Source: Macrostomum lignano (Eukaryota). Taken from it: DNA of 54,182 nucleotides. This document shows, piece after piece, positions 1 through 50,283 of the stretch (within the stretch, counting starts at the first letter, position 1; each line of letters begins with the position of its first letter). Made by a program: the position numbers and the translations under genes. Location: positions 1 to 54,182 of the forward strand of contig NIVC01004223.1 in assembly GCA_002269645.1 (NCBI GenBank), in the 5' to 3' direction. Under the pieces are notes generated by a model. The model was not told the origin of the DNA. It saw only the letters and a list, made by a program, of their open reading frames with translations, and ran no database searches.

Positions 1-5
1 ATTAT

Positions 6-1300
6 TCAAACTTTACTAGACAAGTTATTGATCATATTGACCTTGATCTCCTCTCAAATGCATAGATAATAAACAGATCAACAGCCGTTGCGGCACCAAA
101 TTCTTTACGCTCGATATTAGTCACAATGTTAACGGGGCTATTGTCTGTAGGCATTTGTCTAGCAGTCACATCAACACCAAATATTGGATATAGTTTTTTA
201 TACTGCAAGGTTGTCAAAACAATACCGTTATTCTCTTTGACAGCCAGGTCCGACAGTTCATTGTAAAAACTTACTAATCTTGTTCTCCGAGAAATTCCCA
301 TTTTGTGGCAATGCAGGGTATAAATTGTCACTGATCTCATGTTGAATCGATCGAACGTTTCCATGTAGATATCTACCTACATTAGTTGTATTCCTCATAG
401 TGACAATAATGTACCTTGGATTGCTACAGGAGCCTTCTTTAATGCAAATATTGTGTCTTGCGTCATTCCGCTCATCTCTGCACATATAAGCTGTATAAGC
501 AACATCAATGTCTTTCTCAATCGCCTTCAAGTATTCAGCTTTGAGTGCAGTCTTGGGCTCAATAATTTCTAGTACAGCTCCACGCCAGTTAGCTTAATCT
601 CCATCGATGTATGATTGGCCCCCGACCAAATTCCTCTGTTCCGATCATCTCTAGTCAGTCTAAATGTGTAGCTAAAGTTGCTTGTCAACCGATTGAAACT
701 ATTACAGAAACCACTCATAAACCTCAAAGGTACAAAAATATCTACAGACCTAAACAGCGGATTCTTAGCAGCATCGTTCTCACCAACAAGAGCATAGTTG
801 TATCTCTCCTTTCTCTTTTTGTAACCAGGGTCATTCTCATCTCCTGTCTGTTCATTGGGGATGAATCCAGCACCGCTCCCCATCTGAATAAAATCCGGGT
901 TCTCAATCAAGCACTGGGTATCATAGACCACACCAAAGTTTGCTATTCTTTCCAATTCTGTACTTCCATTGGACACATTAAACTCTTTGAACATATAAGC
1001 CCAGAAATTACTGGTTAGTGCGACATCCGCATTGTGTAGATCATCATTAGCATGAGCGGCGTCTGCGCCTCCTTTAGTTTTGAATTGATACGTCATATAG
1101 AAGCCGCTCCTTAGACTGTGCACACTAACCAAAGACGAACATCCATTGTATGTAAATGTCAGTGTTTGACCAGGACCAAGATTAGTTTCATTCTGATTTT
1201 CCTGACTGGGAACTCTTACCTGAGTCGCTTTGATTGTGCTATCATCACTCAAAATAGGCTTGTTAATTTTGTAGAAAACTGGTGTCAGTGGGTCGTTCAT
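6..1300 (-). CDS. Polinton-type double jelly-roll major capsid protein (hexon-like), three apparent 1-nt frameshifts
   Basis: ORFs 569-1300, 258-530 and 32-364 join into ~430 aa: ...GVELY(L)EIIEPKTALKAEYLKAIEK...NPRYIIVT...LYPALPQNGNFSENKISKF/YNEL...YKKLYPIFGVD...AFE(RE)IKVNMINNLSSKV*. Shifts at ~571, 265-269 (A5) and ~50. Motif spacing recalls Polinton MCPs. Identification is by pattern and gene context. Confidence 0.8.
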
Positions 1301-1330
1301 TTTTTAACTAAAAATAAAATAAAATAAGAA

Positions 1331-2563
1331 ATGAAGCGAAAAAGTACACAGCAGATATCTGAATTGGAGAAGCTAGCACAAGCAGAGAAACGAGTTACCG
1401 GGCTAATAAATAAGGAGCAACAATCCTACAATGAATTCGTCCAAGCAGCCACCGAATTTCACAAACCCGGATACACAGAAGCGAAGAAAAACCTCGACAC
1501 TGTGAAGGAAGCAGTTGATGATATTCAAGAGAGCCACTTGCAAAACACATTGGGTAAAATCCCATCTTCACTGGGACAAACACAGGCTCAGCAACCAGGA
1601 CAACCAGTGCAGATGAATGTGAAGGATAACTTTTTTGGCCCCGTATTGGATGATGGAAAATATATTTTTGGAATTAGCGACTGGCGAAAAAATATTACCG
1701 GGGAACCGGCGGATTACAACATTGAAGTGACGAAGGAAACTATTTCAATCAATAAAGGCGCAGAAACTAAACGAATCCCCTTCACTCAAACTTTACTTGA
1801 TTACATGACTAAAAATCAGGAAAAAAGATCCGAGAAGCAGCTAAAAAATTACAAAGATCTTGTTACCTTTGCTCTTGATAGGGACATAGACATTCTCAAG
1901 AACAACGGTGTTTTGAAAATTTTACATGAAAACGGGATTGTCTTGAACAATTGTAAAAAATACAAATACTTTAAACAATGGTTTGGTTTGCCGGATCAAG
2001 AAGAGGTCATAAGACAAAAACACAACAACCACAACCGCCACAACAACCACAACAGCAGCAACCACAACCACAACCACAACAACCACAATAGCAGCAACCA
2101 CAAACACAACCACAACCACAACAACCTCCACCGCCACAGCAACCTCCACCGCCACAGCAACAAAAAAACCCAGGTTGAACAAGTACTTGATCAACTTGAC
2201 ACTGTAGACCCGATTCTTGTTTCGCAGTACAAAGATAGAAACCCTGATACTTGGCGACAATTAGAACAGTTCTCCCCAGAACGAATGAAGCGAATCAATG
2301 ACAGAGTATTCACACCTAGGCTACAGCAACCCTCACCAGGAACATCCTTCTCTGACCAATCATTCGAATCACCACCAAGCTCTTCCGGAAAAGGCATGCC
2401 TGAATTCTACAAGCGAGTAGCGGTTCTTCTAGGAGCGGCAAAGACCGGAATGAAAGATGAGAATAGAAAAGAGTTCGTTCACATCCTCAATAAAATGCTT
2501 GAGAGAAAATACATCGATAAGAGGGCGAGAGAGCTTCTGCTTTCGCGGTTCAACAAAAAATAA
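1331..2563 (+). CDS. Conserved Polinton accessory/core protein with low-complexity linker
   Basis: 410-aa ORF. The C-terminus GKGMPEFYKRVAVLLGAAKTG...EFVHILNKMLERKYI resembles the 'RL.LL.gs..AGN...Ei..il..L' motif common in Polinton core proteins. Internal repeat tract at 2021-2165. Confidence 0.65.
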   Translation: MKRKSTQQISELEKLAQAEKRVTGLINKEQQSYNEFVQAATEFHKPGYTEAKKNLDTVKEAVDDIQESHLQNTLGKIPSSLGQTQAQQPGQPVQMNVKDNFFGPVLDDGKYIFGISDWRKNITGEPADYNIEVTKETISINKGAETKRIPFTQTLLDYMTKNQEKRSEKQLKNYKDLVTFALDRDIDILKNNGVLKILHENGIVLNNCKKYKYFKQWFGLPDQEEVIRQKHNNHNRHNNHNSSNHNHNHNNHNSSNHKHNHNHNNLHRHSNLHRHSNKKTQVEQVLDQLDTVDPILVSQYKDRNPDTWRQLEQFSPERMKRINDRVFTPRLQQPSPGTSFSDQSFESPPSSSGKGMPEFYKRVAVLLGAAKTGMKDENRKEFVHILNKMLERKYIDKRARELLLSRFNKK

Positions 2564-2579
2564 TTTATTTCAAGTAAAA

Positions 2580-2951
2580 ATGCCACTTATTTTCGAAAAA
2601 GACATTGACAAATACTATGACAAAGAGGAACTTAATCTCATTAAACGCGGATCTGGACTTTTCCCTGCCGGCCACTATCCAAGAAAAGAACGCTCTGGGA
2701 ATGGCCTTGCCGATTTGATCGCTCAGGGGGCCAAGATTTTTAAGGTCATTGGAGAGAACATCAAGAACGTTGCCGAAGCGGCTGGCAGTGTAGCCACAGC
2801 AGCCAAAAAGATTAAAGATACGGTTCATGAAACCCGGAAATCAATACAAGATATTCAACCCCTTGCACCGAGTGCAGATAGTGTCGATCCAGCCATCTAC
2901 GCAAAGATGAGAGCTGAATATAAGAAAGGAGGCGGTTTTAAATTTGACTAA
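2580..2951 (+). CDS. Small basic protein with amphipathic helix (candidate membrane-lytic virion core protein)
   Basis: Likely start is the AAAAATG at 2580 within ORF 2457-2951 (123 aa). GLADLIAQGAKIFKVIGENIKNVAEAAG is amphipathic and follows GxG motifs. Confidence 0.6.
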   Translation: MPLIFEKDIDKYYDKEELNLIKRGSGLFPAGHYPRKERSGNGLADLIAQGAKIFKVIGENIKNVAEAAGSVATAAKKIKDTVHETRKSIQDIQPLAPSADSVDPAIYAKMRAEYKKGGGFKFD

Positions 2952-2987
2952 TTTGGTGCACCCTGACGGTAAAAGAGGTGTGAGGGT

Positions 2988-3100
2988 GTAGGACTAGTCG
3001 GATGTAGGACTAGTCGAAAAAAGACACACACAACCCGAAAAAGACACACACATCCCGCAAAGAGACACACACATACACATCCCGAAAAAAGACACACGCG
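2988..3100. repeat. Short intergenic direct repeats upstream of the ATPase gene
   Basis: TGTAGGACTAGTCG twice, followed by about four degenerate copies of (CCCG)AAAAAGACACACAC. Confidence 0.7.
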
Positions 3101-3146
3101 TCTTAAATACACAAGTTTAAAAAGAAAAAGTTTTTTTACATAAAAA

Positions 3147-3946
3147 ATGGACTTCACAAACGACTTTCATCCCCACTGGACACGCAATCAGATAAAATTT
3201 GCTCACAACGAGATAATTCCAGGGCACTTCCGATGCATTGTTGTTGGCTCATCTGGGTCAGGGAAAACCTTCAGAGTTTTTAACATGCTCCTCAGACCTG
3301 GATTCCTTGATTATGACACACTACATATCTATTCACCCACTCTGTATCAAGATGAGTATAAAATGCTAGTAGCGGGCCTACAGAACAAACTCAACAAGGA
3401 AGATATTATTCAATGTTTTAGACATCAAAAAGACCTCAACAGCAACCCGGAAGTTGTAGCCACTGAATACGCAAAGCACATCCCAGACAATGAAAAATGG
3501 CAAAATATTAAAGTTTTCACTTATGGAGATCCACAGATAGATCCTAAAACTAAACTCTTACCTCAACCTGATGAACTAGAAAAGGGGAGAAAGCACCTGA
3601 TTGTCTTTGATGACTGCATGACCGGTCCCCAGAAACAGATAGAAAATTATTTCACCCGGGGTAGACACAATAACTGCAATGTTATTTACATTGCCCAAAA
3701 CTGGTTTGAACTGCCAAATAAAACAATTAGAGGTAACTGTAATTTGATTCTCCTTTTCCCAACCATACCACAGGATCGACTGAAACGATTTTATAATGAG
3801 GTCATTGCCCCAGCTCACATTACATATCCAGCTAAAACTCTAACAGAACAATATCACAGGAGGAATTTGTTAACATATGCTATGAAAAGTGGAACCAACC
3901 CTATCAGTTTGTCATGATTAATAAGGAGAAAAGAATTTTACTTTAA
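3147..3946 (+). CDS. A32/FtsK-like genome packaging ATPase (one apparent -1 frameshift near the C-terminus)
   Basis: Walker A GSSGSGKT, Walker B LIVFDD, and RGRHNN motif. Adding one A to the A4 run at 3834-3837 gives the expected ending ...SQEEFVNICYEKWNQPYQFVMINKEKRILL* (stop 3944-3946). Confidence 0.9.
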
Positions 3947-3963
3947 TTTTTCATTTAAAAAAA

Positions 3964-4773
3964 ATGTCTATTAATTTTGCTGGTGAGTCAACTACAGGCA
4001 ACAGCACTCTCACAACTTCCTTCCTTGACAAGCGCTACATTAACACTGATGAAGAGATCCCAGAGATCAAACTGAATAAAAACAGACTGAAACAATTAGA
4101 ACGCTCCATGCACCAGTTGCAAATAAACATGGAAGATCTCAGGCTTAAAGTAGCTAGGCAGAAGTTTGAAAGTGATAAGCTTTATGTGCCGTTGTTAAAC
4201 GCAACTATTGAACTAAGGTCAGAAATAACTTCGATAGTCTCGCAAATCAACAGCTTAAGATCGACAGTTAATCTTCTGGGAAATTCCACTGATAGACGGA
4301 TGCGTATTCTTGAAGGAGGAGTTTTCACAAACACAGCTAAAGTAAATAATTTAGAAGAGTTCATGAACCAGTCAACAGCGTTGCATGATAGAATTAAAGA
4401 AAACGTCGCAACCAACACAGTTAAAGTAAATAATTTAGAAGAGTTCATGAACCAGTCAACAGCGTTGCATGATAGAATTAAAGAAAGACTTGAAGCATTA
4501 GAGAAAAGCGATGTATCACACAGTAGCTATCTAAACGGAATGTATAGCTCTTGGGGTAAAATAATAAGGAGGCTTGATCGTCTGGAGAGAACACTCAATC
4601 TTCGTGATATTGCTATTGATGAAGCAGAATCTACTGCTCGTCCGGTCATGTCTACAGATCGAGTAGAAGGAGCTCTGGACCCCGCTGGAGTAATCCGGCA
4701 CGCTCTCAAACGTCAGCCGCCCAGCCGCTGCCTGCTGGACTCGCGATCCTCCGGCGTCACGAGAGCCGCCTAG
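3964..4773 (+). CDS. Coiled-coil protein of the element with an internal 28-aa duplication (possible fibre/stalk protein)
   Basis: 269-aa ORF with A7-ATG start and heptad-rich sequence. NT(A/V)KVNNLEEFMNQSTALHDRIKE occurs twice at 84-nt spacing. Function is speculative. Confidence 0.55.
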   Translation: MSINFAGESTTGNSTLTTSFLDKRYINTDEEIPEIKLNKNRLKQLERSMHQLQINMEDLRLKVARQKFESDKLYVPLLNATIELRSEITSIVSQINSLRSTVNLLGNSTDRRMRILEGGVFTNTAKVNNLEEFMNQSTALHDRIKENVATNTVKVNNLEEFMNQSTALHDRIKERLEALEKSDVSHSSYLNGMYSSWGKIIRRLDRLERTLNLRDIAIDEAESTARPVMSTDRVEGALDPAGVIRHALKRQPPSRCLLDSRSSGVTRAA

Positions 4774-4863
4774 ACAACCGGCGGTGCAGATGGAATTATC
4801 AAAAAGAAAACAGATCTTTCAACCGGATAGTTTTATAATTTTTTTATTTTTTCTAGGGAAAAA

Positions 4864-5592
4864 ATGGCCCAACAAAATTCTCTATACGATCAGTCTAAAT
4901 ACGCTGAACCTAAAATACCGACAGCACCAAACCCAATGGCACCGAATTCGAACACACAAAGCCTGAATGCACCGAATCTGAATGCACCTCAATATGAGCA
5001 ACAAAAACTTTACCCCGTCATTACTTGTAACTCTCAACAGTTTCGACTGGTAGAGATTCAAAAAATGCGGGATGACATTGAAAACAATATTTTCCACAAC
5101 ACAAAGAAAATTAAGCGCTATGAAAGCCACTGTAAATTTTTCGACTACAGCAATATGATTCTAGGATCTGTGTCTGTTCTATCTGGATCTGCTGCGGCTG
5201 TCTCAACGTTGCCAGTCATCACAGCCCCAATCGCAATCCCACTCGGCTCTGTGGGTGCTGCATGTGGATTTATTTCAGCAATTACTGGAGCATTAGCGCG
5301 AAACAGGCGAAAAAAACTAAAGCAGCTACAGGAGAAGCAAGTAAAAGAGAAAGGGGTGCACACTTCAATCATAGGGTACATTTCAAGGGCAATCGAGGAT
5401 AAGTTCATTTCAGAGGATGAGTTCAAAACCATTCAGGATCTTTATGAACAATCAATTCGAATGAACTTGAACATGGTCGGTACTGATGACATGAGTCAGC
5501 TGAGAAATGAACTCGAGAAAGTTCTTCAACATTATGTGGAAAGAAAGTCGGCAAGAAGGACAACGAGAAATACACACAATGAACCCTTATGA
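4864..5592 (+). CDS. Polinton-associated protein with two hydrophobic helices between coiled-coil regions
   Basis: 242 aa: LYP...FRL.EI start, hydrophobic ILGSVSVLSGSAAAV and IAIPLGSVGAACGFISAITGAL segments, basic RRKKLK, and ISRAIEDKFISEDEF ending. This layout is commonly seen in Polinton ORFs. Confidence 0.65.
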   Translation: MAQQNSLYDQSKYAEPKIPTAPNPMAPNSNTQSLNAPNLNAPQYEQQKLYPVITCNSQQFRLVEIQKMRDDIENNIFHNTKKIKRYESHCKFFDYSNMILGSVSVLSGSAAAVSTLPVITAPIAIPLGSVGAACGFISAITGALARNRRKKLKQLQEKQVKEKGVHTSIIGYISRAIEDKFISEDEFKTIQDLYEQSIRMNLNMVGTDDMSQLRNELEKVLQHYVERKSARRTTRNTHNEPL

Positions 5593-5986
5593 AACACAGC
5601 CAAGAATAATTTCCTTGTAGGTCTTTCGTGTTTTGGTCATTGCATACAAAACAGTCATGCACAGCTCACCGCAAATATCACTGCTAAGACCTTGGAGAAT
5701 AAAGTCTGAGCGATAAATTTTTTTATTTTTTTCCCTTCATATAATTTCTTAGCTCTTCTGGTACTGCCGTCCCATAGCTATCGAAGTAATAACACTTGTG
5801 CTTGCGATCGGGATCAATCACCCAGCAAACCCAATGAGATCCTGGCTTATCGGTGGTGTCAAAATTCATGATGCCGCATTCCTTTCTTAGAGGAAAATCA
5901 GGCAGAGTGTCCCTCATAAATATTCCTCTAAAGTTTGGGATTTCCAGTTCGTTAGCCAAAGCTTCAAGAAAGTTATTTGTTGTCAT
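5587..5986 (-). CDS. Adenain-like cysteine protease (one apparent +1 frameshift)
   Basis: MTTNNFLEALANELEIPNFRGIFMRDTLP...GSHWVC...YYFDSYG. Removing one T from the T7 run at 5726-5732 continues into IYRSDFILQGLSSDICGELC, which supplies the oxyanion Q and catalytic C, then ...GCVS*. The His/Asp/Cys triad is complete after correction (132 aa). Confidence 0.9.
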
Positions 5987-6038
5987 TTTTATGAGGTTTA
6001 TTAAACTTTCTCTTAAACCTAAACCTAATCTCAACCTC

Positions 6039-9000
6039 CTAAACCCAATCTCCTAAACCTAATCTCCAGTGCCCGAACGGTAGACTGTTAATATTGTCAT
6101 CAAAAATGAATCTCTTATTATCTGCACCTGACAGTCCAATCTTTTTTGCTGAATTGTGTGAATAATATGGTTTTTGATTGTAGCTTTGAGAACTCATGTG
6201 ATGTCTTTTTGTTGCAATTCAAGGCGTCTCTGTATTCAGCTTCATTAATTTCCTTCCTAACCACGCGTTTTGGAATTCCCTTTGATTTTTTAATTGGGTC
6301 TGACGACTCACATTTTACAAAATAGGACTTTGCTCTCAACCCAATGAATTCAGTGATTATGTCACCAGCAATCTCGTCCTTCATTTTCCCAATCACTTTC
6401 TTGTTAGTGGCGTCAAACACTTGATCGCCATTCTGTGTCCTGAAAGATTCATCATACTCAGACAAGTCAAACAAATCTTTTTGCTGCAGCATGTCCTGAT
6501 AAATGTCTTCTGTTTGAATGTCCATAATAAAACTGTCTGTGTCAGTGTACAAGAGTTTCATTTTATCCTTGTACTGCTGCTTCATGCCATACAAGAACTG
6601 GTACATCAGACGTTTTGATTCGTCGAGAACAGTGACACCTGTATAGATCGGCTTGCGCAGCGTCACCTTGGTTTTGTAAAATATGATCACACCTAAGTAG
6701 CTATTAAAGATATGGAGTTCTTTGAATGTTGGCTTTGACATATTTGCCTGAATAACAGCAGGCTCTGATGAGGTAACAAGTTTCAGGTTTGTTCTTTTCC
6801 GCTCATTCTCAAGAGTCTTGCCATAGACAGAGTTGTTGGCCAACTTAAAGAGGTTCTTGTCAAAGTCGTTGGTTGCTTTGGTCCTAAACTGGGTATTCTT
6901 ATCAATGTAGGGTTTCATCCACGCTTCCTCTGTAAATGTAAGAGCCCGGTGAACTTTAGTGACCCTGCAACCAAGTGAGATAAAATACTGAAGCAGTTTG
7001 TAATGGATTTTGTAACGTGTCTTGTTGTTTAGATTCTGTGTTAGTTTCTCTGTATGTTCTTTTTCTGTTCCTGACAGGTGCCAAGTTCCATTATTATCAT
7101 TGGGAGTTTCGATTATTTTCGGGCACTTGATGTTCTCTGGGAAGGGTGGAAAGTCAGAGAAATAGTCGTGAAGCTCTGGTGGAATGTAAACATCAACCTC
7201 ATAAATGGCAGCCAATGAAAAGTCCCATTTGAATTCTGATGAGGGTAGCCATCGAAAATCTCTAACTGGAAGATCTTGACTCATCGCCCACCCGTAGAGA
7301 TTATTAGCGTCCAAGTAAGTAATGTAGTTTGAGGGCTGCTCCTTATTGTAAGATTCAATGTAGGGATTGTTTGCTTTTGCATACCTGTTAACGCAAATTG
7401 AGATTCCCCCTCGCTTTGACGATTCGACAAAATTGTACATGTCAATGTCTGTAAGAAGTTCAATGTACCAATCTGGATCTTGATCCCATTTCATTTTAAC
7501 AAAGATTCCCAGCTAGTGGCAGGGAGAGACACATAATGTGCTGGATCGAGGCCATATGCTGTGTACCAGGTGTATCTGAAGGTTTCAAACACATCGGCCA
7601 GCAGAAACACATCTGTGTAGAGGTAAAGCAGGTGATACTGGAAGAAGTTTTGACAATTAAAGTAATTATAGACATGCTTCGCGTGCTCATAGTCTTTGTC
7701 AGAGATTCCAGAGTCTGTTAGCTTTGAAAAGAACTTTTCTTGTGGTGGTAAACCTTCTCCAAATACGTGATACCCAGTAATATTTTCATAGGGGTAGAAG
7801 CCTTTCTTTCTTAAAAGTTTAAATGATTCATCACTGTTGTTAATTTTACTTGCAAATATCTTTGTATATGTACATTGTTCATCTTTTAGATTCTTGCTTA
7901 GTTCGTCTAGACTGGCCGCTAGAAATTGATATGAATCCTTCAGTCTTATTTTACCTGTACCCGAATTATCCTGTTTAATATCAACGCACTTAAACTTCTC
8001 CTTGTTTTCTGCGATGCAGTCAAGGTGTATGTCTTGAATCATGCCGATTTTTTCAACTATTAAATGCATGTCATAGTTCTTTGCGTTGTGACAAAATATC
8101 GTTAGATCATGAATGTTGGATTTTAGCTTTAGATTACAGGTGTTATGCGCTGCACCTCTAAATTTCCCAGTAAAGTGACAGTGGTCCCTAACGGTGGGGT
8201 TTTTAAAATCAGTGCAAGTTAACTGTTTCCTGCAGATGTGGCAATGAGTTGCTGATAGGAAATTGCTTTCATCCTCCTCAGTCATCATTATTGGAACAGG
8301 TTGAAGAGTGCTAATTACTCTTTGCAACTCTAACATTCTGGCAATAAACTGCTCCACACACTGGTCTCCAAAGAAATAATTATACTCAACAAGTCCTTTT
8401 GTATTAATAAAGGCATATGCTACTGAATTGGGGACATGTTTTTGAGTTTGAGTTTGTTTTTGAGTATGAGTTTGTTTTTGAGTTTCTGGCATGATTGAGC
8501 ATTCGAAATCAGCATATACAACAAACGGGAGCTTCTCCATCTTGTGATAGTTATTAAAACGGAGATACTTCTCTTCAGCTGAAGGAAGAGAGCAATTGGT
8601 CGGGTGATCCTCGCATGATAATTCATGCTCTGTTAGTTTTTCAAAGCGTTCAGGTCCACTGTAATGCTTAAGGCACAAGCGGCAGATGGCAACAGCCTCG
8701 TGATGATTATTCAACTGCTTGTGAATGAGTCTTGAAAGATCTTTAATCCAAACATAGTGAGCCTCCTCTAGTAAATTACCAATCACTAGAAGATCCACTT
8801 CAGTCCGCCTTTTCCCCTCAGGATCTAAAACGTCTTTGCTACATCTGACCGGTTGAACTTTCTCAGTTTTTTCACTCCACTCAAAGACTGTTATTCTAAT
8901 TTTGTTATTAAACACTTCTTCTAGCTTTGGGATCTGAGAGATCGCCAAGCCTCCTTTGTCAAACCTGATTCCCTTCTTTTCACATTCGATGAGATAGTGC

Positions 9001-9899
9001 TTGAAATAATTTTGATAATTTGAGGTTCTTTCGGGGTGGTGAGAGACACTATCATGATGAAGTGCAGAAAGAACTGCCCATAGAGCACAGCAGTTGTCTT
9101 TATTTTTAACATTTATGCAAGCTTTTTTGCCGGCTAGCTTATGCGGGAGATCTATATAAGAGGAGGCTTTAAGTGGGTCATATTTCATGACCATAACAGT
9201 CGCTCTTTGAATCCCTCCTACGACCCATCCGGAACCTCTGGATGTAAACGCTTCAATTTTCTTAGTGACATCTTGAAGGAAAGGATCCAGTGTGTCTGTA
9301 GGGGTGAATGGCTTTGCCTTTGTTGTCATGTAATACTCGAGATGCTCAGTGGGTTTTGCAGGCATATAAAACGCAATCTTGAATGATATCTGTAGTTTAA
9401 AGGTCTTGCGTGTTTTGAGTGTGTGATCAACAACTGATTGGATGCTGTCTTTATAGTCGTAGATGTTTGCGGTGGTACCGTTGGTGTCGTTAATTGGGAT
9501 TGTGTACTCGATGTAATGTTCTGTAAACTTCCTCTGTGCAAAATTAATCTCTTCAGTGGCAAGCTCCGACTCTTTTAAATGGATTAATTGCTCTAATTTC
9601 TCTTGTTCCTGCTTATTTTGTGGGTACTTTGCTTTTTCACCAGCGAGAGTTTCGTATTTGTTAACTGAGTTGCGACTCCTCTCTTGGTGTTCCTTTGCAG
9701 GATTTTGTATAGGCGCATACTGGTTGGATTCTAATTGGTTGATGATTTCCAACTGTTTTTCATAGCTTCCCAGGTGACCAGGGTCGGTGTTAAACTTTTG
9801 TTTGCATGCTTCTCTTAGTAAATTACTTTTGTCTTGAAATGAGACGCCTTTTGAAAAATATTTGTTGACTAAATCTCTTGCTGGATTGGCTTTTGGCAT
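6039..9899 (-). CDS. polB: Protein-primed family B DNA polymerase (three apparent -1 frameshifts)
   Basis: Exo I YADFEC, Exo II HNAKNYD, Exo III YLYTDV, Pol A YLDANNLYG, Pol B KLANNSVYGK, Pol C YTDTDS. Also an EndoVII-like CHIC...RDHCHFTGKFRGAAHNTCN motif and an N-terminal OTU-like NCCALWAV...HYVWI region. ORFs 7491-9899 and 6118-7494 join by one A at 7494-7497. Two more at 6171-6175 and 6142-6147 restore KIGLSGADNKRF...LPFGHW (~1287 aa). Confidence 0.95.
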
Positions 9900-10041
9900 T
9901 TTTTCTCGAAAATATAAAAAAAATTTTGAGGGTGACCACCCTGATAGAAAAGTTGAACTGTTTCTACATCCTATTAGTAGCGTTAGGTTTATGAAGCTGG
10001 ATAAAGTGGGGTTTTAAACCTCATCACATTCGCATTCACAT

Positions 10042-10506
10042 TCACATCCGCATTATTGTAAACCCAGCATTGTGCAGTGTCATGATGGCTTTGACAATGT
10101 CGGACTTGCTTACAGAATTTTGATGCTCACAATCATCATGATCATCACAATCATCAAAATCAGGGCAGCCCTCTCCTGCCTTAATTGTTATACCTTTGTC
10201 TCTTGCAATCTTTTGCAATTCTAGCTGGTGGGCTCTATCATTCCCAGCTTTAACAGCAGTTGCTACACCTCCAGCTACACCACCTGCGGCACTTACAGCG
10301 CCTGCAATGATTGGGATAAGAGCTGCTAATGGTAGGATTCCTCCTGACTTTTCATCTGTGATGCTGTGTCTTTGCTCATTACATTGAACTATTTGCTGTG
10401 TGGGATCAACCTTAACTTTGACACCTTTAATTGATATAAGACCTGGTTTCTTTGATTCAATGATTTTATTGAGTTTATTGATGGTTCTGGTTTCGATCTT
10501 TGTCAT
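10042..10506 (-). CDS. Adenovirus pX (mu precursor)-like core protein
   Basis: KSGGILPLAALIPIIAGAVSAAGGVAGGVATAV closely resembles the adenovirus pX C-terminal segment (MRGGILPLLIPLIAAAIGAVPGIASV, recalled from memory), including the GG cleavage site. Confidence 0.7.
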   Translation of the reverse strand: MTKIETRTINKLNKIIESKKPGLISIKGVKVKVDPTQQIVQCNEQRHSITDEKSGGILPLAALIPIIAGAVSAAGGVAGGVATAVKAGNDRAHQLELQKIARDKGITIKAGEGCPDFDDCDDHDDCEHQNSVSKSDIVKAIMTLHNAGFTIMRM

Positions 10507-10523
10507 TTTTTTATTTTAATATT

Positions 10524-11519
10524 TTAATTAATTTCCGTGTCAGCTGGTATCACTAGGAGTTCAGCTCTAGTAAATGACCGCGTGGGGGATTTAGGGTTAA
10601 AGGCCTGAGATAAAAAGTAATACTCTCCAGAGTCAGAGGTAAAATGTCTGTCTATTTTATTTACATCAAGGCTGAAGTATGGATCTGTAGCTCTTCTTTT
10701 GGTGTCTTTCTCTAGCTCTCCAGGTAGATATAAAAAGCGTAGAAACTCAGAGTTTGTCAGTATGTATGGTGATTTAACTCTTGGAAGCTTAGGGTAGTTA
10801 GAGGTGTTTGTTCTGTGAGATGCCTTAAGTTTGACAGTGTCTTGTTTAATTGCATGGGACGGTTTCAATCCAGTCATGCGTGTGACCTCATTGTTAAGTT
10901 GCTCTATAACAGTGGGGAGTCTTTCTGTCCATTTTGTATAGTACTGCCCCGCACTCAGTTTAAGTTCTTGCGCTGTCTGCTTAGTGAATAGCCTCTTGGC
11001 TAGAGTTAAATTAAATCTCTCAACGTACGCTTGGTCCCTGTGCAGGTCTGTTCTTCCGTAGCGAATTTCCGTATTGTGCTTTTCCATAAGGGATTTGACT
11101 GCACCCATGAATTCCTTACCCGGGTCGGTCATAAAGGTTTGGGGGTATGTGAGCGGAGAGTTTTTATAAATATCTTGGAGTGCGGCTGCAACAACCTCTG
11201 ACTTCTTCATCTTGAGTGGGCGAGCTTCCTTATATCTGGAAGCAATGTCTGTAATTGTGAGAGCATACTTGTAGCCTGAGTCATTGGGGAGAAACAGAAG
11301 ATCTGCTTGGTGCGCCTCATTAGGTTTATAAATACTGAAATGGGGCCTTTCAAATTTTACTGGTGGGAAATAGACTTGAAAGACAGCCTGCTTAGAGAGC
11401 CATTTTTCTACTGTAGCTTTTGGCTCCTTACTCAGCTCCATGAGTTTACTAACGGCATTTTTGCCTACAAAGAATCCTTTGTCGCTGTAGTAGAGTTTTT
11501 TAAGTTTCTGATCTGTCAT
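10524..11519 (-). CDS. Retroviral-like (rve, DDE) integrase
   Basis: Intact 331-aa ORF with HQADLLFL (D), TDPGKEF (D) and YVERFNLTL (E), as in Polinton integrases. No obvious C-terminal chromodomain. Confidence 0.93.
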   Translation of the reverse strand: MTDQKLKKLYYSDKGFFVGKNAVSKLMELSKEPKATVEKWLSKQAVFQVYFPPVKFERPHFSIYKPNEAHQADLLFLPNDSGYKYALTITDIASRYKEARPLKMKKSEVVAAALQDIYKNSPLTYPQTFMTDPGKEFMGAVKSLMEKHNTEIRYGRTDLHRDQAYVERFNLTLAKRLFTKQTAQELKLSAGQYYTKWTERLPTVIEQLNNEVTRMTGLKPSHAIKQDTVKLKASHRTNTSNYPKLPRVKSPYILTNSEFLRFLYLPGELEKDTKRRATDPYFSLDVNKIDRHFTSDSGEYYFLSQAFNPKSPTRSFTRAELLVIPADTEIN

Positions 11520-11549
11520 TTTTTTAAAAAGAAAATTTTAAATAAAATA

Positions 11550-12044
11550 ATGCAACGCTCTGGCGGTAACTTAGACTCACATGGACTGATAGAAAAGCTT
11601 CCTCATCCAAACAAAGGCTGGACACTTCCCGGGTACAAATATTGCGGGCCTTTGAATCCACTTGAAATACAGCTGGATGGATACAACAACCCAAATCCTG
11701 GACATGAGCCTGTGAACGAGCTAGACTCTGTCTGCATGTGGCACGATGTTAAGTATAGAGATTTTCCAGAGGAGAAGAATCGCTGGGACAAAGAAATGCT
11801 TAGGAGATTAGACAATATGGGGACTTCAAGCGGATTTCGTGAGTCGATTGCTAGGAAATTAGTCAAGGCGGTTATTTTTGGTAAGACAAAATTGGGGTTG
11901 GGGATGTACGCCGAGGGCGGGTGTTTGGGGAGAGAAGGTGGGTGCGTGGGGAGAGAGGGCGAAGGAGCAAGGTTTATTTTGTGCGTTCCTAACAATGAAT
12001 TGGGAAGACTGCTGAAAGAGCTGGGGGTAGAGAGGGGCGCTTGA
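11550..12044 (+). CDS. Parvovirus VP1u-type phospholipase A2
   Basis: Likely start is the ATG at 11550 (in frame with ORF 11307-12044). Ca-binding loop PGYKYCGPLN, then PVNELD, catalytic HDVKY and downstream D (WDKEML). 164 aa. Confidence 0.85.
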   Translation: MQRSGGNLDSHGLIEKLPHPNKGWTLPGYKYCGPLNPLEIQLDGYNNPNPGHEPVNELDSVCMWHDVKYRDFPEEKNRWDKEMLRRLDNMGTSSGFRESIARKLVKAVIFGKTKLGLGMYAEGGCLGREGGCVGREGEGARFILCVPNNELGRLLKELGVERGA

Positions 12045-12258
12045 GTCGGGAAGGGTTTAAAAAAAGACTCATGGATATTAAATTTTAATAAGTTAGAAGC
12101 TTGATTCAATATTTTATTTCATGTTAAACAATAAAAACATTAATACAAAGCTGTTCAAAGTTACATATAATAATTCGTTTAGTTAATTCATGCAGTTATT
12201 ATTACACTGAAAAGTGCTATGAGTAGACTTAGCTGCGAAAAAATTCTAAACAGTCCAG

Positions 12259-12550
12259 GATTTTTTCCAGGATTTTATCAATGTAAGCTACTCATAGTAG
12301 TCTTCTAAACACTTTCCTGGATCTCCAGGATTTTTTTAAACTCGTGCCAATTCCTGACAATACAGGAATTCCTGACAATACAGGAAAGTCTTTTACTAGA
12401 TTTTTTCCAGGATTTTATCAATGTAAGCTACTCATAGTAGTCTTCTAAACACTTTCCTGGATTTCCAGGATTTTTTTCCAGGATTTTTTAAACTCGTGCC
12501 AATTCCTGACAATACAGGAATTCCTGACAATACAGGAAAGTCTTTTACTA
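12259..12550. repeat. Tandem duplication (140 and 152 bp) built from TCCTG/CAGGA palindromes
   Basis: Units start at 12259 and 12399. Each contains TCCTGGA-N2-TCCAGGA and two 18-bp repeats AATTCCTGACAATACAGG, whose junction is the 12-bp palindrome CAGGAATTCCTG. Confidence 0.9.
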
Positions 12551-12551
12551 T

Positions 12552-13376
12552 TCAAAAACGAAGATCTCGAAACAGCGGCAAGTCATTGTTGAGAAGCTCA
12601 TCCTCATCCTCTTCCATTTCTGTCACGCCAGATCGTCCTGAAGCACTTGCAACAGGTGATCGTCTTGGTGAAGTTGAAGCGTCATCTTGCACAGCAGAGC
12701 CTCCACTAAATGTTGGAAGTGGATCATCTTCAAGCAGGCTTGCAAAGTTGGCGTTCTCATCACAACGGTGCTCAATAGCCGACTTGAATTTCAGGATGGT
12801 ATCCATAGAGTATGATGAGCAGAGTAGACCACGATATCGCGATGCGAACTTTGCAAAGTTGGCTAGACGTTCGGTGTACTTGACGGCTATCTTGAGTTTG
12901 ATAGCGATGGCGGCCAGAGTAAGACCTCTCTTCTGTTGTAGATAGATGATCAGACGTCCTTGGGCAAAGTTGGCTAGACATTTGATGATGTCTAAATCCT
13001 CAACTAGTTGAACTAAATCCTTAAACCGGGTCTGAATCTCAGAATCTTCCAAATCCTCGCTGTCATCAATCGGCCGAAGAAGATCCTCAAGTCCATCGAA
13101 TCGTGTTTTAACAACAACATCATTGCGAAGATTCTCTTCTATTTTCGCTTGCAGCCGTTGAAGGAATCGGCGAACTTCCTCATTCTTGTCGATTTTTTTC
13201 TCTTCCTTCTTAGCTTTCTTTGTCTTTTCACTAACAGCTTGTTCCAGTTTCTCAAAAGATTTCAAAAGGGCTCGGCGCTCCTCATCAGATAGTTTAGTAA
13301 GTTCTATCGTTAAAGATCTTTGGTCTCGTTTTGATACTTCACTAAATAAGTTAGCAATTTCAATAGCCCTATCCAT
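12552..13376 (-). CDS. Hypothetical protein: coiled-coil N-terminus, candidate helix-turn-helix, acidic S-rich tail
   Basis: Intact 274-aa ORF. TLAAIAIKLKIAVKYTERL fits the HTH pattern. The C-terminus (SGVTEMEEDEDELL) is acidic. CAAAATG start context. Confidence 0.6.
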   Translation of the reverse strand: MDRAIEIANLFSEVSKRDQRSLTIELTKLSDEERRALLKSFEKLEQAVSEKTKKAKKEEKKIDKNEEVRRFLQRLQAKIEENLRNDVVVKTRFDGLEDLLRPIDDSEDLEDSEIQTRFKDLVQLVEDLDIIKCLANFAQGRLIIYLQQKRGLTLAAIAIKLKIAVKYTERLANFAKFASRYRGLLCSSYSMDTILKFKSAIEHRCDENANFASLLEDDPLPTFSGGSAVQDDASTSPRRSPVASASGRSGVTEMEEDEDELLNNDLPLFRDLRF

Positions 13377-13463
13377 TTTGTAGTAGAAGTTGCTGGCGCG
13401 GCGAGGTTAGGCAAAGCAGAGCGAGGCGGAGATGGTGGGGCGAGGGGTGGTGTGAATCGGCTG

Positions 13464-13544
13464 TATATATACCATTGGTGTGGGCTCGGGAATCCACGGA
13501 TTCTCTTTTTGTTCTAGAATATTCTAGAATTCGAATTCTAGAAG
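13464..13544 (-). promoter_or_regulatory. Heat-shock element plus TATA box upstream of ORF 13376
   Basis: 13511-13530 reads gTTCt-aGAAt-aTTCt-aGAAt: four perfect alternating nGAAn pentamers containing the Pelham consensus CTAGAATATTCTAG. A further aTTCt-aGAAg pair lies at 13535-13544. TATATATA is at 13464-13471, 88 nt upstream of the ATG. Confidence 0.75.
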
Positions 13545-13708
13545 GGGAACCTGTAGATTTTCTATTTATAGGTATGATTTTCTATTTATGGTTGATTGGG
13601 GTTGCCAAAGCGGAAAGAGATTGGAAAGCATGTGTGGAACGCATGGCATGGGTTTTATTTTTAGAACTTACGTCTACACTCTACAAGGTACAACCTTGTA
13701 GTTGGCTA

Positions 13709-13945
13709 CTACAACTGCCTTATAACTTCAGCAAAGTTATAGTAGCTGTCAAAATCGTTAATGACTACTCCATGTTTTTCAAACCAGTGAGATTTAAGTG
13801 CTTGATTAATATTAGGGACATTGATTTCAATGCCGGGCCAATATTTTCTCATGTACTCGCTGCATTCTAGTTTGCATTGGTACCTACTCTTGTAATTAGG
13901 CTCGTGCGCTTTGTAATAAGAACCTGGACAGACAACTGGAAGCAT
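13709..13945 (-). CDS. Small hypothetical accessory protein (78 aa)
   Basis: MLPVVCPGSYYKAHEPNYKSRYQCKLECSEYMRKYWPGIEINV..., starting at an AAAAATG like the viral genes. Aromatic/Cys-rich and protein-like. Confidence 0.45.
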   Translation of the reverse strand: MLPVVCPGSYYKAHEPNYKSRYQCKLECSEYMRKYWPGIEINVPNINQALKSHWFEKHGVVINDFDSYYNFAEVIRQL

Positions 13946-14283
13946 TTTTATTGAGAATTTATTTTTTTCAAAGGGTAAGTGTGACCCACTCTTTTTTTCT
14001 GATTGTGTCAGGGATAATACATTTTTAACCGAGTAGCTCTGCAAGTGGTTGTATAAATAAGCTTTCTTCCTTACGTAGCTTAAACGTGTCGCGGGATTGA
14101 CTGTACTTAGAGAAGTGGAAAGAGAGAGAACTTGCTATGTAGAAATAAATGTACGCGGAGAGGAGAAGCTTGTGCATAGGAAGAGAGGTTCTCTCTGTAT
14201 ACGGGGCCTGCGTACTCTGAGTTAGTGAGGGCATGATCCACATGAAGCTTTTGCATGGGGGGGAGAGATATTTGCTCTGTACA

Positions 14284-14438
14284 TGTTCGGTGGCGGAACA
14301 TTTGTTCGGCGGCGGAACATTTGTTCAGCTGAGGAACATTTGTTCGGCGGCGGAACATTTGTTCGGCTGAGGAACATTTGTTCGGCTGAGGAACATTTGT
14401 TCGGTTGAGGAACATTTGTTCGGCTGAGGAACATTTGT
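14284..14438. repeat. 19-bp tandem array x8 with internal palindromes
   Basis: Unit TGTTCGG(CTGA/CGGC)GGAACATT. This gives TGTTC-N7-GAACA within units and GAACA-TT-TGTTC across junctions. Confidence 0.92.
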
Positions 14439-14520
14439 AGCTGGCTCTGTAGCTGGTGCCCTAGAGGGTAGTTTTACATTTTTCCCTTAGATAAATAGTT
14501 GCAAGCATTGCAATGTGATG

Positions 14521-14720
14521 GGGATAATATGGATGGATATTAGGTGGATTATAATCGAAGTTTTCGGAGCAAGTGCGGCCCCTCTTTTTTCTGATTCTGT
14601 CGGGGATAATATGGATGGATTTAATGGGATTATGGAGGACGTTTTGTGAGCGAGTGCGACCCCCTTTTTTTCTGATTCTGTCAGGGATAATATGGATGGA
14701 TTTAGATGGATTATGGAGGA
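14521..14720. repeat. ~81-bp tandem repeat, ~2.5 copies, with a dispersed partial copy at ~13978-14019
   Basis: GGGATAAT starts at 14521, 14603 and 14684. The shared block TTTTTTCTGATT(C/G)TGTC(A/G)GGGATAATA also occurs at 13993-14019. Confidence 0.85.
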
Positions 14721-14758
14721 GGTGAAAAATTTTGTCCCAGAAGCCCCCTCATGCATTC

Positions 14759-14920
14759 TACTGTGGTTTATCTGCAGCTAGTTTGCAATGGACAAGAAGC
14801 AATTGAGTCTTCTCAATGCTTGAATTAGCAGTACCGTGCATGTGATAGTCGCATCACAATCGATCAGTATTCTGCAATGAGAAATGTTGGTGAGTTTTTC
14901 TGGCTTTGCAATCAATGCAA
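14759..14920 (+). pseudogene. Degenerate PHD-finger coding relic
   Basis: Reads YCG..C..VCNGQEAIESSQCLN*QYRACDSRITIDQY...FFWLCNQC. PHD spacing is recognisable, with substitutions at ligand positions and a TAG where W is expected. Confidence 0.5.
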
Positions 14921-15299
14921 TAGACGGGCTCCTGCAGGTAATTTAGCAGTGTCTCAAATGTCTCTTAGTGCCAGTGGGCAGTAGGGGTTTGCACATTGCT
15001 TGTGAAGTTATGCTCCCTTCCTCAAGAGCCTTATTCCTTTCTTCTTTCTCTGCCCCTGTCACTGCTTGGTTGTATAGGTGCCATCAACCTCAATTGGGTA
15101 TGTGGACATACAAAAGTTCACGTTGTTCTCAACCCCATTCCACTATAGTTTTTATCTAATGTGACCAAGCCAGGTACTTTTAGTGCAGGGGTCGGCAAAC
15201 TTTTTACCTCAATTGAGAACTCATGTAGCTCATGACTGCCTTTCTGGGTCTGCTTTGTTGGGCCCCTTAAGCAAAGCGAGGAGTCCTGATGACAATGGG

Positions 15300-15712
15300 C
15301 CAGAGGTAAGGAGAGAGGGTAAGGAATAGAGAAGAGAAATACAAGCATAGGATAAAGGAGAGGCAAAGGAATAAAGGAGAGGCAAAGGAATAAAGGAGAA
15401 GAGAGTTGATAAGAGGAGAGATTAAATACGAGTGGAGAGAGAGGAGAAGGGAGATTAATGGAGAAGAGAGAGGAAGAAAGGAAGAAGAGAATGAAGAGGA
15501 AAAGGGGGATGAAAGGAATGAGGTGAGGAGAGAGGAGAGGATAGAGGTGAGGAGAGAAAAGAGGTGAGGAGAGGAGAGAGGAGAGGGCAGAGATGAGAGA
15601 GAGAACAGATGAGAGGAGAGGGCAGAGATGAAAAAGAGAAAGATGAGAGGAGAAGGCAGAGTTGAGAGAGAAAAGATAAGAGACGAGAGTGCAGAGATAA
15701 GAGACAAGAGGG
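15300..15712. repeat. Purine-rich (GA) low-complexity tract
   Basis: Almost pure A/G on the + strand. It produces the spurious L/S/P-rich minus-strand ORFs. Confidence 0.9.
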
Positions 15713-15757
15713 CACTCCAATTTTTGCTTACTTCTATCATAACTAATATTATCTTTA

Positions 15758-16163
15758 GGCAATCCTTCGGTTTCCCGCTCTAAATTATTTCAATGTGATA
15801 TTATGATATATTATAAAGAGTTTGAATGGCGATTCTAAAATAATTCTAAAATGATCCATTCCAATTCTGAAGTTAATGATCCCGATTCTGAAGCAAATGA
15901 TTTTGATTCTAAAGTGAATGATCCCAACCCAGAAGTGAATTTTCCCAATCCTGAAGTGAAAGATCCTGATTCCAAAGTGAAAGGTTTTTATTTTGATTAG
16001 CCACTACTATCTACTGTAGTGCGACTGATTGACTAACTAACTAGCTTCCTGTATTGTATTTTTCATTTTTTGTTATGCTCACCTCTGTTGTGCTATTCAA
16101 ACTTGTTTTATAGTATAATATCTAATGTTAAAACAATTTAGAGCGGGAAACCGAAGGATTGCC
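15758..16163. mobile_element. MITE with 29-bp perfect TIRs (possibly Merlin-like)
   Basis: GGCAATCCTTCGGTTTCCCGCTCTAAATT (15758-15786) and its exact reverse complement at 16135-16163. Flanking 8-mers TATCTTTA / CACCTTTA match 6/8 (possible decayed TSD). The GGCAA start fits the Merlin GGNRM pattern. Confidence 0.7.
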
Positions 16164-16984
16164 CACCTTTACCCTCTACCTTTAACTTTTAACATATACA
16201 AACAACACATCAATTTTAGTATATTGAGATAGGTTTGAAACTATTATCCATGATACAAAAATCAAATGTCTTGTGCTAGTAGTGCTACTAGCTTTAGTAG
16301 GTACTAATACTTGCTGTAAAGGGAAGTGTTTTTAGTTTTACTAATCTAATTTCACTAACAAAATCTGTCTTCTCTGAGACTTAAAGCTAGGTCATACCCC
16401 ACCCCAATCACAGCCAATAGGAAATGAGGAAATATATAGACCTATTCCTATCCAAGCAGCCATTCAAAGCTGTGGCCATCTTGGTCATGCGCCCAAAGAA
16501 GTATTGCAAAGTACTTATTTCTAAATTAGAGCTCAATTTTTATAATTTATATCCAATTCTATTTTATAATCTAGGTATCAAAAAGAAAACTGGGGAATTG
16601 AAAAGTCTGGATACCAGGCCCATTACCCTAGATTGCTACACAAAGTGCCTCTGCTTAATCAAGCTATTGGGACTACATATGCAAGGTCAAGGGCAAACAT
16701 CCTTTCTTCTATTTCCTTTTCCTCTTTTCTTTTCCCCTTTTTCTTTCTCTTCTTCTTTCCTCTCTTCTCTCCCCTGTCTTTTTCCCCTTTTTATTACTTT
16801 CTCCCTCTTTTCTCTTTCCCTTTCTCCCCCCTTTCCTTTTCTTATTATCTAAGTAAAATAACAGTCTCCAATTCTTACCAAGATCTGCAATAGTGATGAC
16901 CCACTCATCAGTTGGTTTCCAAGAAGCCTCCTCTGCAATCTATCCTTTGATAGTGGTAGATACTGGTGGCTTCCCCATTGTTTC

Positions 16985-17450
16985 ATTCATCTTAACTTAA
17001 GCCCCTATACTATCCTAGCCACAATGTGCATATAGCAGTCAAAAATGTCATTTTTTATCCTAGGGACTTAAGAGCTCCTTTTGTATTGAAAGTGAAATTA
17101 TATCCCCATTTTAACTCCCTCCCCCTATTCTAACCTCAATGTGCATGTAGTGTCAAACATTTGTCTTTGTAACTTGCGTCTCTAATTCTAAGGACTTAAG
17201 TCAAGAGCTCCTCTCATATTGAAAGTGAAAAAAATTCATCTTCAATTTAGCTCCCAACATCTCAACCCTATCCCAGTCTCTTATCCTAGGGACTTAAAAG
17301 CCCCTTTGAAAGTGAAAACATTCATCTTAACTTTAGCCCTATCACCCAAGTTCCCAACTACAATGTCAACATGGAATCTATGTTGATACTAGAGTCCTAA
17401 CTTCCAGGGACTTATAAGTTCCCCTCATCTTGAAATTGGCAACATTCATT
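16985..17450. repeat. Degenerate ~100-130 bp tandem repeat
   Basis: CCTAGGGACTTAAG..CTCC...TGAAAGTGAAA..ATTCATCTT recurs near 17058, 17188, 17285 and 17403. Confidence 0.6.
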
Positions 17451-17569
17451 TATTTTTACTACTCTAACCCTATCAAATCAATAGCTCCAATGGTATTTCA
17501 ATTCTCAAGTGGTATTATATGGAAACTAAATATGAGATAGGGAAATATATGTTCCCATGTTTTTTATTA

Positions 17570-35443: not shown

Positions 35444-35661
35444 TTCAACAGGGGCGATCTCGGCGTAATTAATCAACATACAATTAGAATTATTTTGTCT
35501 CTGGCCAAAATTAAGGCTGCATATTTCAAAGTAACATATTTATTTGATGATTATGCGAATTAGGTGGGCTAAATTTATAGAGGGGTAAACTTGTAGCCAA
35601 GGCGATTACAAACTTAGCAGTAGCAATACAAAAGATCGCATCGTCGAAAGTTTAAAACAAA

Positions 35662-50136: not shown

Positions 50137-50283
50137 CTAGTAAGGCCTCTGAAACCCTATTGTAAAGAGTAGCACGGGCCTCCCATATGTTTAATGTCTA
50201 CGAAATCCGTAGCCAGATATATTTTTATACTTTTTGATGATATTAATGTTATACGCATGCGTCCATGGAAATTCTTCATTCAG

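Follow-up and report, generated by a model that had tools for sequence, protein, structure and literature searches.

Gene content and extent of the element

The window analysed here is an entire contig of 54,182 bases, which begins 5 bases beyond the stop codon of a double jelly-roll capsid (MCP) gene and carries the features collected in Table 1. Judged by its sequence, the locus holds the right-hand portion of a polinton (adintovirus/Maverick) that has integrated in a Macrostomum flatworm and belongs to a young family with many copies, and the polinton/adintovirus identification made in an earlier note on this DNA holds, with capsid, packaging ATPase, protease, protein-primed family B polymerase (PolB), integrase, PLA2 and pX-like genes all in place. 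The host, an animal, is probably Macrostomum lignano, as an iGluR gene on the same contig clusters at at least 90% with a protein of that species; the 24 sequencing runs listed all belong to one organism. Polintons integrate by means of an rve integrase, are copied from their terminal repeats by a protein-primed PolB and carry a module of capsid, packaging ATPase and maturation protease. In the present element, as predicted from the family, the rve integrase would insert the element and PolB would replicate it from the terminal repeats.

Table 1. Features of the element, with positions in the window
Feature	Position	Strand	Remarks
Double jelly-roll MCP gene, complete span ~430 codons	6..1300	-	three frame breaks: 48-50, 265-271, 570-572
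Conserved ORF1331	1331..2563	+	open 411-codon frame; low-complexity linker ~2020-2165
Small ORF, candidate virion core protein	2580..2951	+	sub-threshold Colicin match only
A32/FtsK-type packaging ATPase gene	3147..3946	+	one frame break near 3835; Pox_A32 E 7e-7
Coiled-coil-like ORF with internal 84-nt duplication	3964..4773	+	no family above cut-off
ORF with central hydrophobic stretch, possibly membrane-active	4861..5592	+	
Adenain-like maturation protease gene	5587..5986	-	frame break near 5725; Peptidase_C5 E 5e-3, below cut-off
Protein-primed family B DNA polymerase gene	6039..9899	-	breaks near 7494-7500, 6170-6175, 6142-6147
ORF with adenovirus pX (mu)-like segment	10042..10506	-	Adeno_PX E 5e-7, above cut-off
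rve (retrovirus-like) integrase gene, unbroken	10524..11519	-	rve E 1.2e-8, above cut-off; D, D, E motifs
Parvovirus-type PLA2 domain gene, unbroken	11550..12044	+	Phospholip_A2_4 E 4e-13
Duplicated non-coding block, unit ~140-150 nt	12254..12550	.	start of variable region
274-aa helical ORF beyond the limits in the earlier note	12552..13376	-	11 homologues at 25-33%
Right-hand continuation of element	13606..14280	.	includes 78-aa ORF 13709-13945 (-)

The core genes were recognized by family profiles, catalytic motifs and homologues. The integrase scores 35.6 bits against PF00665 (cut-off 32.6) and has the DDE motifs, while the FtsK/A32 ATPase scores 29.4 bits against PF04665 (cut-off 22.8) and has Walker A and B motifs, its tail lying in another frame. 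The adenain protease matches PF00770 below the cut-off, on its first piece, and its motifs span the frame break: this piece carries the His/Asp motifs, whereas the Gln/Cys motif falls in a different frame. The polymerase, with an N-terminal OTU domain, lies in a gene with three frame breaks and combines the vOTU, an exonuclease carrying an HNH/endonuclease VII insertion, and a palm (DNA_pol_B_2 E 1e-6; Endonuclease_7 E 7e-5); exonuclease and palm motifs are present, and the vOTU residues Cys271 and His381 are shared with all 20 of the 20 homologues compared. The earlier statement that all catalytic motifs are present after correction is borne out for PolB, vOTU, integrase, ATPase and, across its break, the protease. 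Homologues of PolB number 3191 among 8000 candidates, the best of which are 30–43% identical and are unnamed or derive from molluscs and insects.

The capsid gene was recognized through its homologues: the sequence relatives found are seven unnamed clusters only, all intact (422–438 aa, 45–78% identical), each in a single open frame and each above the cut-off for PF21738. A search of PDB sequences with the MCP profile gave no matches. In a Foldseek search with a low-confidence model of homologue P0121 (pLDDT 48), the matches were virophage and giant-virus MCPs at TM 0.2–0.3, headed by the Sputnik MCP (E 7e-11). The adjacent ORF1331, which may be PZ-like by resemblance, has four homologues (32–41% identity over 97–98% of its length), three with a Gln/Ala-rich linker and one with the linker missing; an atlas search with this ORF gave no usable match.

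The element extends further to the right than position 12,044, where it had been thought to end. Contig depth is low at 11901–13804, with a dip at 12377–13328, and returns to a core-like level at 13805–14280 in runs X1, X3 and X11, the contigs of which also join 13606 directly to 12003. The 274-aa ORF within the low-depth region is probably an accessory gene carried by a minority of copies; two of its homologous clusters are multi-copy M. lignano hypothetical proteins, and its low-confidence model (pLDDT 49) is predicted to be all-helical. A right terminus near 14,760 is a lead only, suggested by a putative terminal motif that occurs 15 times in 12,000–19,500. To the left, the flank is absent because the window is the whole contig, which stops 5 bases past the MCP stop: no single jelly-roll penton was recognized in the window by family search, no long inverted repeat was found in positions 1–20000, the left end of the element lying outside the contig, and neither a pair of terminal repeats nor the 5–8 bp target-site duplication of polintons was found within the contig. 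Searches for related loci with flanks gave 17 pattern matches in viral_contigs and 39 in metagenome_contigs, with none confirmed in either set.

Relationship to known polintons

The closest likeness is with the adintoviruses (proposed Adintoviridae; Starrett et al., 2021, PMC8502044), which have in common with the Macrostomum element the OTU-PolB, rve integrase, FtsK-type ATPase, adenain protease and double jelly-roll capsid, as well as PLA2 and pX-like accessory genes and an animal host. The adintoviruses, however, have a fused PLA2X, whereas PLA2 and pX are separate ORFs here, and no penton or terminal repeats were recognized in the Macrostomum contig. PLA2 is typical of Alpha adintovirus modules (PMC8502044), whereas here it is accompanied by a PolB that appears Beta-like by a weak PF03175 match, so that by profile scores the two traits point to different classes. 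That match reaches 28.3 bits (cut-off 25.8) over ~190 aa, and is found neither on the C-terminal piece nor on the two best full-length homologues; an initial assignment to an Alpha-type PolB was dropped. Neither Macrostomum nor flatworms are mentioned in the main text or in one supplement of PMC8502044. More widely, no description of a Macrostomum polinton, Maverick or endogenous DNA virus was found in a literature search with Repbase, Dfam and subscription journals outside its scope, nor was a report of a Maverick/polinton capsid in Platyhelminthes found in the literature searched.

Three further systems can be compared. Intact vertebrate Mavericks (Barreat and Katzourakis, 2021, PMC8097293) are likewise young and multi-copy, with intact beside degraded copies and silent-biased divergence; the Macrostomum element differs from them in gene order and in its invertebrate host. 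They are defined by eight intact ORFs, terminal inverted repeats and a 6-bp target-site duplication, whereas the Macrostomum copy has broken ORFs and ends outside the contig. The pPolB2 Polintons of nematodes and oomycetes (Jeong et al., 2023, PMC10748475) have an endonuclease VII/HNH-like insertion in the PolB exonuclease region in common with the present element, a likeness drawn by description. The protist endogenous viruses (Bellas et al., 2023, PMC10120064) are also multi-copy integrated DNA viruses with genes fragmented in assembly; there the fragmentation is an assembly artefact, whereas here the host is an animal and an artefact is the probable reading for this copy.

Frame breaks in the assembled copy

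The copy had been described as possibly intact and virion-competent, which exceeds the data: as assembled, eight breaks in four core genes place it outside the intact class of Barreat and Katzourakis (2021), and penton, terminal repeat pair and target-site duplication are missing from the contig. Ten single-base indels had been proposed. The eight breaks in MCP, ATPase, protease and PolB were found where they had been placed, whereas the two in ORF1331 exist only in an alternative frame and are hypothetical, because the ORF1331 frame is open in the window; the Gln/Ala-rich linker of three of the four homologues lends them some indirect support. The single TAG regarded as the only nonsense codon belongs to the same alternative frame, where it would truncate ORF1331 ahead of its most conserved C-terminal block. 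Against the seven intact MCP homologues, tblastn switches frame at all three capsid sites, with P0126 aligning as three pieces and P0122–P0124 having a separate last piece that starts at 50; the three pieces together retain 106 of 112 invariant columns. In PolB, 76 full-length homologues (of 120 taken) switch frame near 7494–7500 and in the tail at ~6140–6200. In place of homologue frame switches, the evidence for the ATPase break comes from contigs, and that for the protease break from contigs together with the motifs. No break was seen in PolB 7500–9899, the integrase or PLA2.

Comparison with short-read contigs

The window was compared with Logan contigs assembled from short reads in four studies (runs X1, X3, X8 and X11), of which X8, guessed to be RNA, served as one more contig set. 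The sequencing runs contain ~60% of the window's sampled words, and 1–3 records per run extend past an end of the window, two among those listed past base 1. Assembled contigs cannot show strand, ends or expression. The contigs show a gap difference from the window at 7 of the 10 proposed sites, including all three capsid sites: near 265 and 570 (MCP), 3835 (ATPase), and 6170 and 7499 (PolB) in all four runs, and near 48 in the three covering runs. The protease gap near 5725 is listed in two of the four runs, and in the other two the only long record to cross the site has gaps. Position 6142–6147 is not among the rows listed, and 2010–2168, the ORF1331 linker, was skipped as a repeat. The majority form of the family is thereby shown to be free of frame breaks at seven sites, and the idea that the breaks do not typify the family holds, although no one complete copy was seen among the contigs. 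A further gap, at 5574 near the end of ORF 4861..5592, accounts for 10–25% of depth in all four runs.

This result bears directly on whether some breaks could be programmed slippage sites of the virus, a reading that we rejected. Several of the breaks do lie in or beside A/T runs; at the seven sites, however, slippage is refuted by their absence from the family majority, and the homologues, 7 of 7 MCPs and 76 full-length PolBs, have single open frames, so that slippage is scarcely credible. Nor are A/T runs a general explanation. Eight of the indels had been assigned to such runs: the contigs differ in run length at three of these sites and in another manner at two (ATPase and mid-PolB), and the remaining three are not among the listed gap rows or lie in the skipped repeat. 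Over the listed coding gaps, three of seven are run-length changes and four are not, and a homopolymer mechanism fits only those three.

Family structure was also apparent in the contigs. Records of X1 at at least 99%, 95–99% and 90–95% identity to the window number 4835, 3797 and 1768, and long contigs diverge from it by ~1% (33 of 3359 bases in X11, 39 of 3873 in X8). Decayed copies exist, as shown by contigs of low depth in which PolB is gapped and joints skip 39–477 bases. In X11, dominant contigs reach a depth of 286–1253 compared with ~12 for a low-depth allele, no more than a hint that the copies number in the tens or above, contig depth not being a copy-number measurement.

Origin of the breaks

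Most of the breaks in this copy are probably assembly or consensus errors and not decay. Error is favoured over decay because the breaks crowd toward the contig end and because the substitutions are silent-biased and without stops. The crowding toward the contig start gives P 0.016 for the eight breaks over all ORFs, P 0.003 over the alignable core genes and P 0.011 over the 12 listed gap rows (overall range P 0.003–0.017). Among the 40 listed substitution rows, 29 are coding, with 16 silent, 13 missense and no nonsense changes, where 27% silent is expected (P 0.001); the tests on listed rows drew on the 12 best-supported gap rows out of 34 and the 40 best-supported substitution rows out of 321, hence on a biased subset. 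The contig ends inside a repeat, and read support would thin toward that end; short-read polishing would fail in near-identical multi-copy sequence and leave consensus errors behind. For multi-copy endogenous viruses of protists, apparent fragmentation has been described as an assembly artefact and polishing as having often failed (PMC10120064). One M. lignano long-read assembly was made with PacBio and polished with short reads (PMC5730564), which is not claimed as the source of the window.

The iGluR gene had been put forward as an internal control for uneven error. It is no valid control, because zero errors are expected there with a probability of 0.75–0.93 per run (0.05–0.36 per base): the gene has 5 A/T runs of at least 4, versus 212 in the element.

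Alternatively, the breaks may be real private mutations of a recently dead insertion within an otherwise coding-competent family, which we consider unlikely. The earlier preference for error over decay stands in part, as private decay of this copy is compatible with the contigs. Error falls short of proof for this copy because Logan contigs drop rare variants, so that a mutation confined to a single copy among many would give the same picture, and because the family includes decayed low-depth copies. The 12 window-private substitutions (5 silent, 7 missense) also fit neutrality (P 0.19), and four of the seven gaps are not run-length changes. However, neutral decay should not cluster breaks at a contig end, below 7500 the number of gap columns is high compared with that of substitutions (6 versus 12 in X11, 6 versus 15 in X8), and the 29 coding rows hold no nonsense change.

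It is very unlikely that the assembled copy is instead a chimera, in which the part far from the unique flank blends intact and decayed copies and matches no real locus. The contig end within a repeat and the polymorphism of the family would favour such blending, and false consensus sequences have been described for such elements (PMC10120064), but long contigs stay ~99% identical to the window over the length of the element and no switch can be seen in them, and the chimera overlaps with the error reading that we prefer.

Significance

Polinton virions were unobserved as of 2021 and 2023 (PMC8097293 and PMC10748475), and intact Maverick copies have been recorded from 17 species of vertebrates (PMC8097293). 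It is conceivable, though unlikely, that an adintovirus family in Macrostomum laboratory cultures is still mobile and has tens of copies or more, that its capsid lineage is represented by unnamed contigs alone, and that its complete copies make particles naturally. The value of the finding is tempered in that intact copies and the assembly artefact have already been described (PMC8097293 and PMC10120064), and the element is known here from sequence alone. Families of this kind can be scored dead from draft long-read assemblies, and, if the proposal is true, assembly errors would explain why this one was overlooked. With a young family of many copies present in a flatworm already established in the laboratory, the virion question would become open to direct observation; if complete copies do make particles, this small, transparent and genetically tractable animal would offer a place to observe the first animal polinton virions.

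Gene content of the element

A polinton gene set fills the first 12 kb of the window, where an earlier note had proposed an adintovirus, with the capsid, ATPase, protease, PolB, integrase, PLA2 and pX-like genes all present. The capsid assignment follows from seven homologues (P0121–P0127; 422–438 aa, 45–78% identity to the window's capsid), all of which are intact and score above the cut-off of the double jelly-roll family profile. In a low-confidence model of the closest of them, the top structural matches are virophage and giant-virus capsids, and 106 of 112 invariant columns are retained across the window's capsid pieces. Every motif sought in PolB, integrase and ATPase was found, and the vOTU Cys and His agree with 20 of 20 homologues. 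The conserved plus-strand ORF1331 is presumably 'PZ-like'. The only relatives found of the capsid and of ORF1331 (P0137–P0140) sit on short contigs (2–10 kb), whose matching sizes (3512, 3560) suggest that the two genes are adjacent there too.

Features of the element and of the rest of the contig
Feature	Position	Strand	Remark
Capsid gene (MCP)	6–1300	−	7 intact homologues
ORF1331	1331–2563	+	single open frame
Adenain-type protease	5587–5986	−	Pfam below cut-off
PolB	6039–9899	−	Pfam above cut-off
pX-like ORF		−	Pfam above cut-off
Integrase		−	Pfam above cut-off
ATPase		+	Pfam above cut-off
PLA2 gene		+	Pfam above cut-off
Small ORF and two further ORFs		+	the two further ORFs unassigned
Inverted repeat pair	15758–16163		36 nt, 94% complementary, spacing 334 nt, 21-nt tandem array inside; MITE-like
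225-aa frame	21279–21956	+	presumably resembles C-terminal part of non-LTR retrotransposon reverse transcriptase
Ionotropic glutamate receptor (iGluR) ORF	25630–28659	−	single exon, 1009 aa
Exon	33302–33778	+	presumably TRAF-like RING finger
465-aa open frame	35656–37053	+	Gln/Arg/Ser-rich; long open frames on opposite strand
Proline-rich exon	50173–50829	+	terminal 'HLYDY..IDDDLLC' motif, which we take to be typical of LNX/PDZRN RING proteins

Frame breaks in the window

Eight frame breaks are genuine features of the window sequence. Homologue alignments change frame at all three capsid sites (~48–50, 265–271, 570–572), and a homologue search (76 full-length proteins among 120 fetched) shows frame changes in the middle and tail of PolB (6142–6147, 6170–6175, 7494–7500). 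The ATPase tail lies in a different frame from the rest (~3835). In the protease (~5725), the His and Asp motifs lie in one frame and Gln/Cys in another, so the ORF track makes the enzyme look dead; the earlier note was right on this, and on the presence of the catalytic motifs. Its count of ten indels holds for these eight, whereas the two placed in ORF1331 occur, like its single TAG, only in an alternative frame, the actual frame being open. The alternative frame is plausible in that three of four homologues have a Gln/Ala-rich linker there (absent in the fourth), but its TAG would cut off the C-terminal block, where conservation is highest; unless the TAG is also an error, this speaks against 'intact'.

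Other copies of the family

About 60% of the window's sampled words are present in 20 of 24 listed runs (7 studies, one organism). We compared window 1–14280 with assembled contigs of four runs from four studies (X1, X3, X8, X11), skipping 2010–2168 as repeat and taking the best-supported rows (12 of 34 gap rows, 40 of 321 substitution rows). The family is multi-copy and polymorphic (10,400 records in X1, 4835 of them at least 99% identical), and overall divergence from the window is ~1%. Gaps relative to the window occur near 265, 570, 3835, 6170 and 7499 in contigs of all four runs and near 48 in all three covering that site. Two of four runs list the gap near 5725, with roughly 20% of the depth behind it, and in the remaining two the sole long record over the site carries gaps. 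None of the 12 best-supported gap rows (of 34) falls at 6142–6147, though one record over 6094–6597 shows a second gap outside those rows. The family majority therefore lacks the seven breaks that the gap rows cover. Further gaps lie at 3037, 3957, 5574, 5985 and 10506, only 5574 being inside a reading frame. The description 'homopolymer indel' fits a minority of breaks: among the gap rows listed, run-length change accounts for three of seven coding gaps, and the ATPase and mid-PolB differences are not of this kind, though both had been placed in runs. At 4652–4809, at the end of the 3964–4773 ORF, several low-depth contigs skip or replace 130–150 bases and one switches strand; the spot is variable and possibly prone to hairpins.

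Error or decay

Assembly error is the likely cause of the breaks in this copy. The window makes up a whole contig, which stops within the element, and the breaks are concentrated near this end (P 0.016 for all ORFs, 0.003 for alignable core genes, 0.011 for the 12 of 34 gap rows). Among 29 coding substitution rows (of the 40 of 321; the other 11 lie outside ORFs), 16 are silent and 13 missense, with no nonsense change, where 27% silent would be expected (P 0.001). The ratio of gap columns to substitutions is high below 7500 (6 to 12 in X11, 6 to 15 in X8). Multi-copy endogenous viruses are described in PMC10120064 as appearing fragmented through assembly artefacts and resisting short-read polishing. 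The breaks could instead be mutations private to one decaying copy. Contigs drop rare alleles, so such mutations would look the same, and the comparison with other copies, while placing the majority without breaks, cannot by itself separate the two. Twelve substitutions occur in the window alone; 5 are silent and 7 missense, which is indistinguishable from neutral (P 0.19). The family also includes decayed copies at low depth, in which PolB carries gaps and internal stretches are deleted, and the gap and substitution rows tested are a support-ranked subset. Crowding, silent bias and gap frequency favour error. The iGluR ORF, offered as proof of uneven error, is no such sign, since it has 5 A/T runs against 212 in the element and zero events are expected. 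The other member of its cluster of two is a named Macrostomum lignano protein from a different contig, which shows that there is a paralogue or homeologue and makes M. lignano the probable host.

Extent of the element

The element continues beyond 12044, where the earlier note had ended it. In three of four runs contig depth falls at 11901–13804 and is core-like again at 13805–14280, and contigs of the same runs join 13606 to 12003 with 13 letters between. Other copies therefore have the block holding a 274-aa ORF either missing or rearranged (orientation is not displayed). This ORF has 11 homologues, some of them multi-copy hypothetical proteins of M. lignano, and probably represents an accessory gene that varies among copies. 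Listed X1 and X11 records run on past base 1, so the element extends leftward outside the contig. No right end was found. Two arrays occupy 14284–14720, a tandem one of 19-nt units (8 copies) and one of 81-nt units (2.5 copies), and a 29-nt piece of the latter recurs at 13991–14019; the arrays could be subterminal repeats. A broken Cys-rich frame after them (~14,810–14,960) is presumably PHD-finger-like.

Comparison and significance

The element has every adintovirus feature testable within the contig (penton and termini are not among these). Its traits are mixed between the Alpha and Beta groups, the weak PF03175 match of PolB being Beta-like and the PLA2 gene typical of Alpha modules. As assembled, it falls outside the 'intact Maverick' definition of PMC8097293. 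The literature covered, which mostly excludes subscription journals and repeat databases, yielded no account of an element of this kind in Macrostomum, and the main-text part and one supplement of PMC8502044 (text possibly incomplete; other supplements could list one) contain no flatworm element. By analogy with polintons, integrase would insert a linear genome flanked by inverted repeats, PolB would prime from the terminal-protein domain that it carries and that, according to a proposal, the vOTU protease sets free, capsid, penton, ATPase and adenain would assemble and mature particles, and PLA2 possibly aids entry (PMC8502044, PMC11071308, PMC10748475). The genes, their motifs, copy polymorphism and silent-biased divergence are established here, and the family has probably been active recently. 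The family, rather than this copy, is the worthwhile lead: young polintons in a tractable animal, in which natural particles could be searched for.
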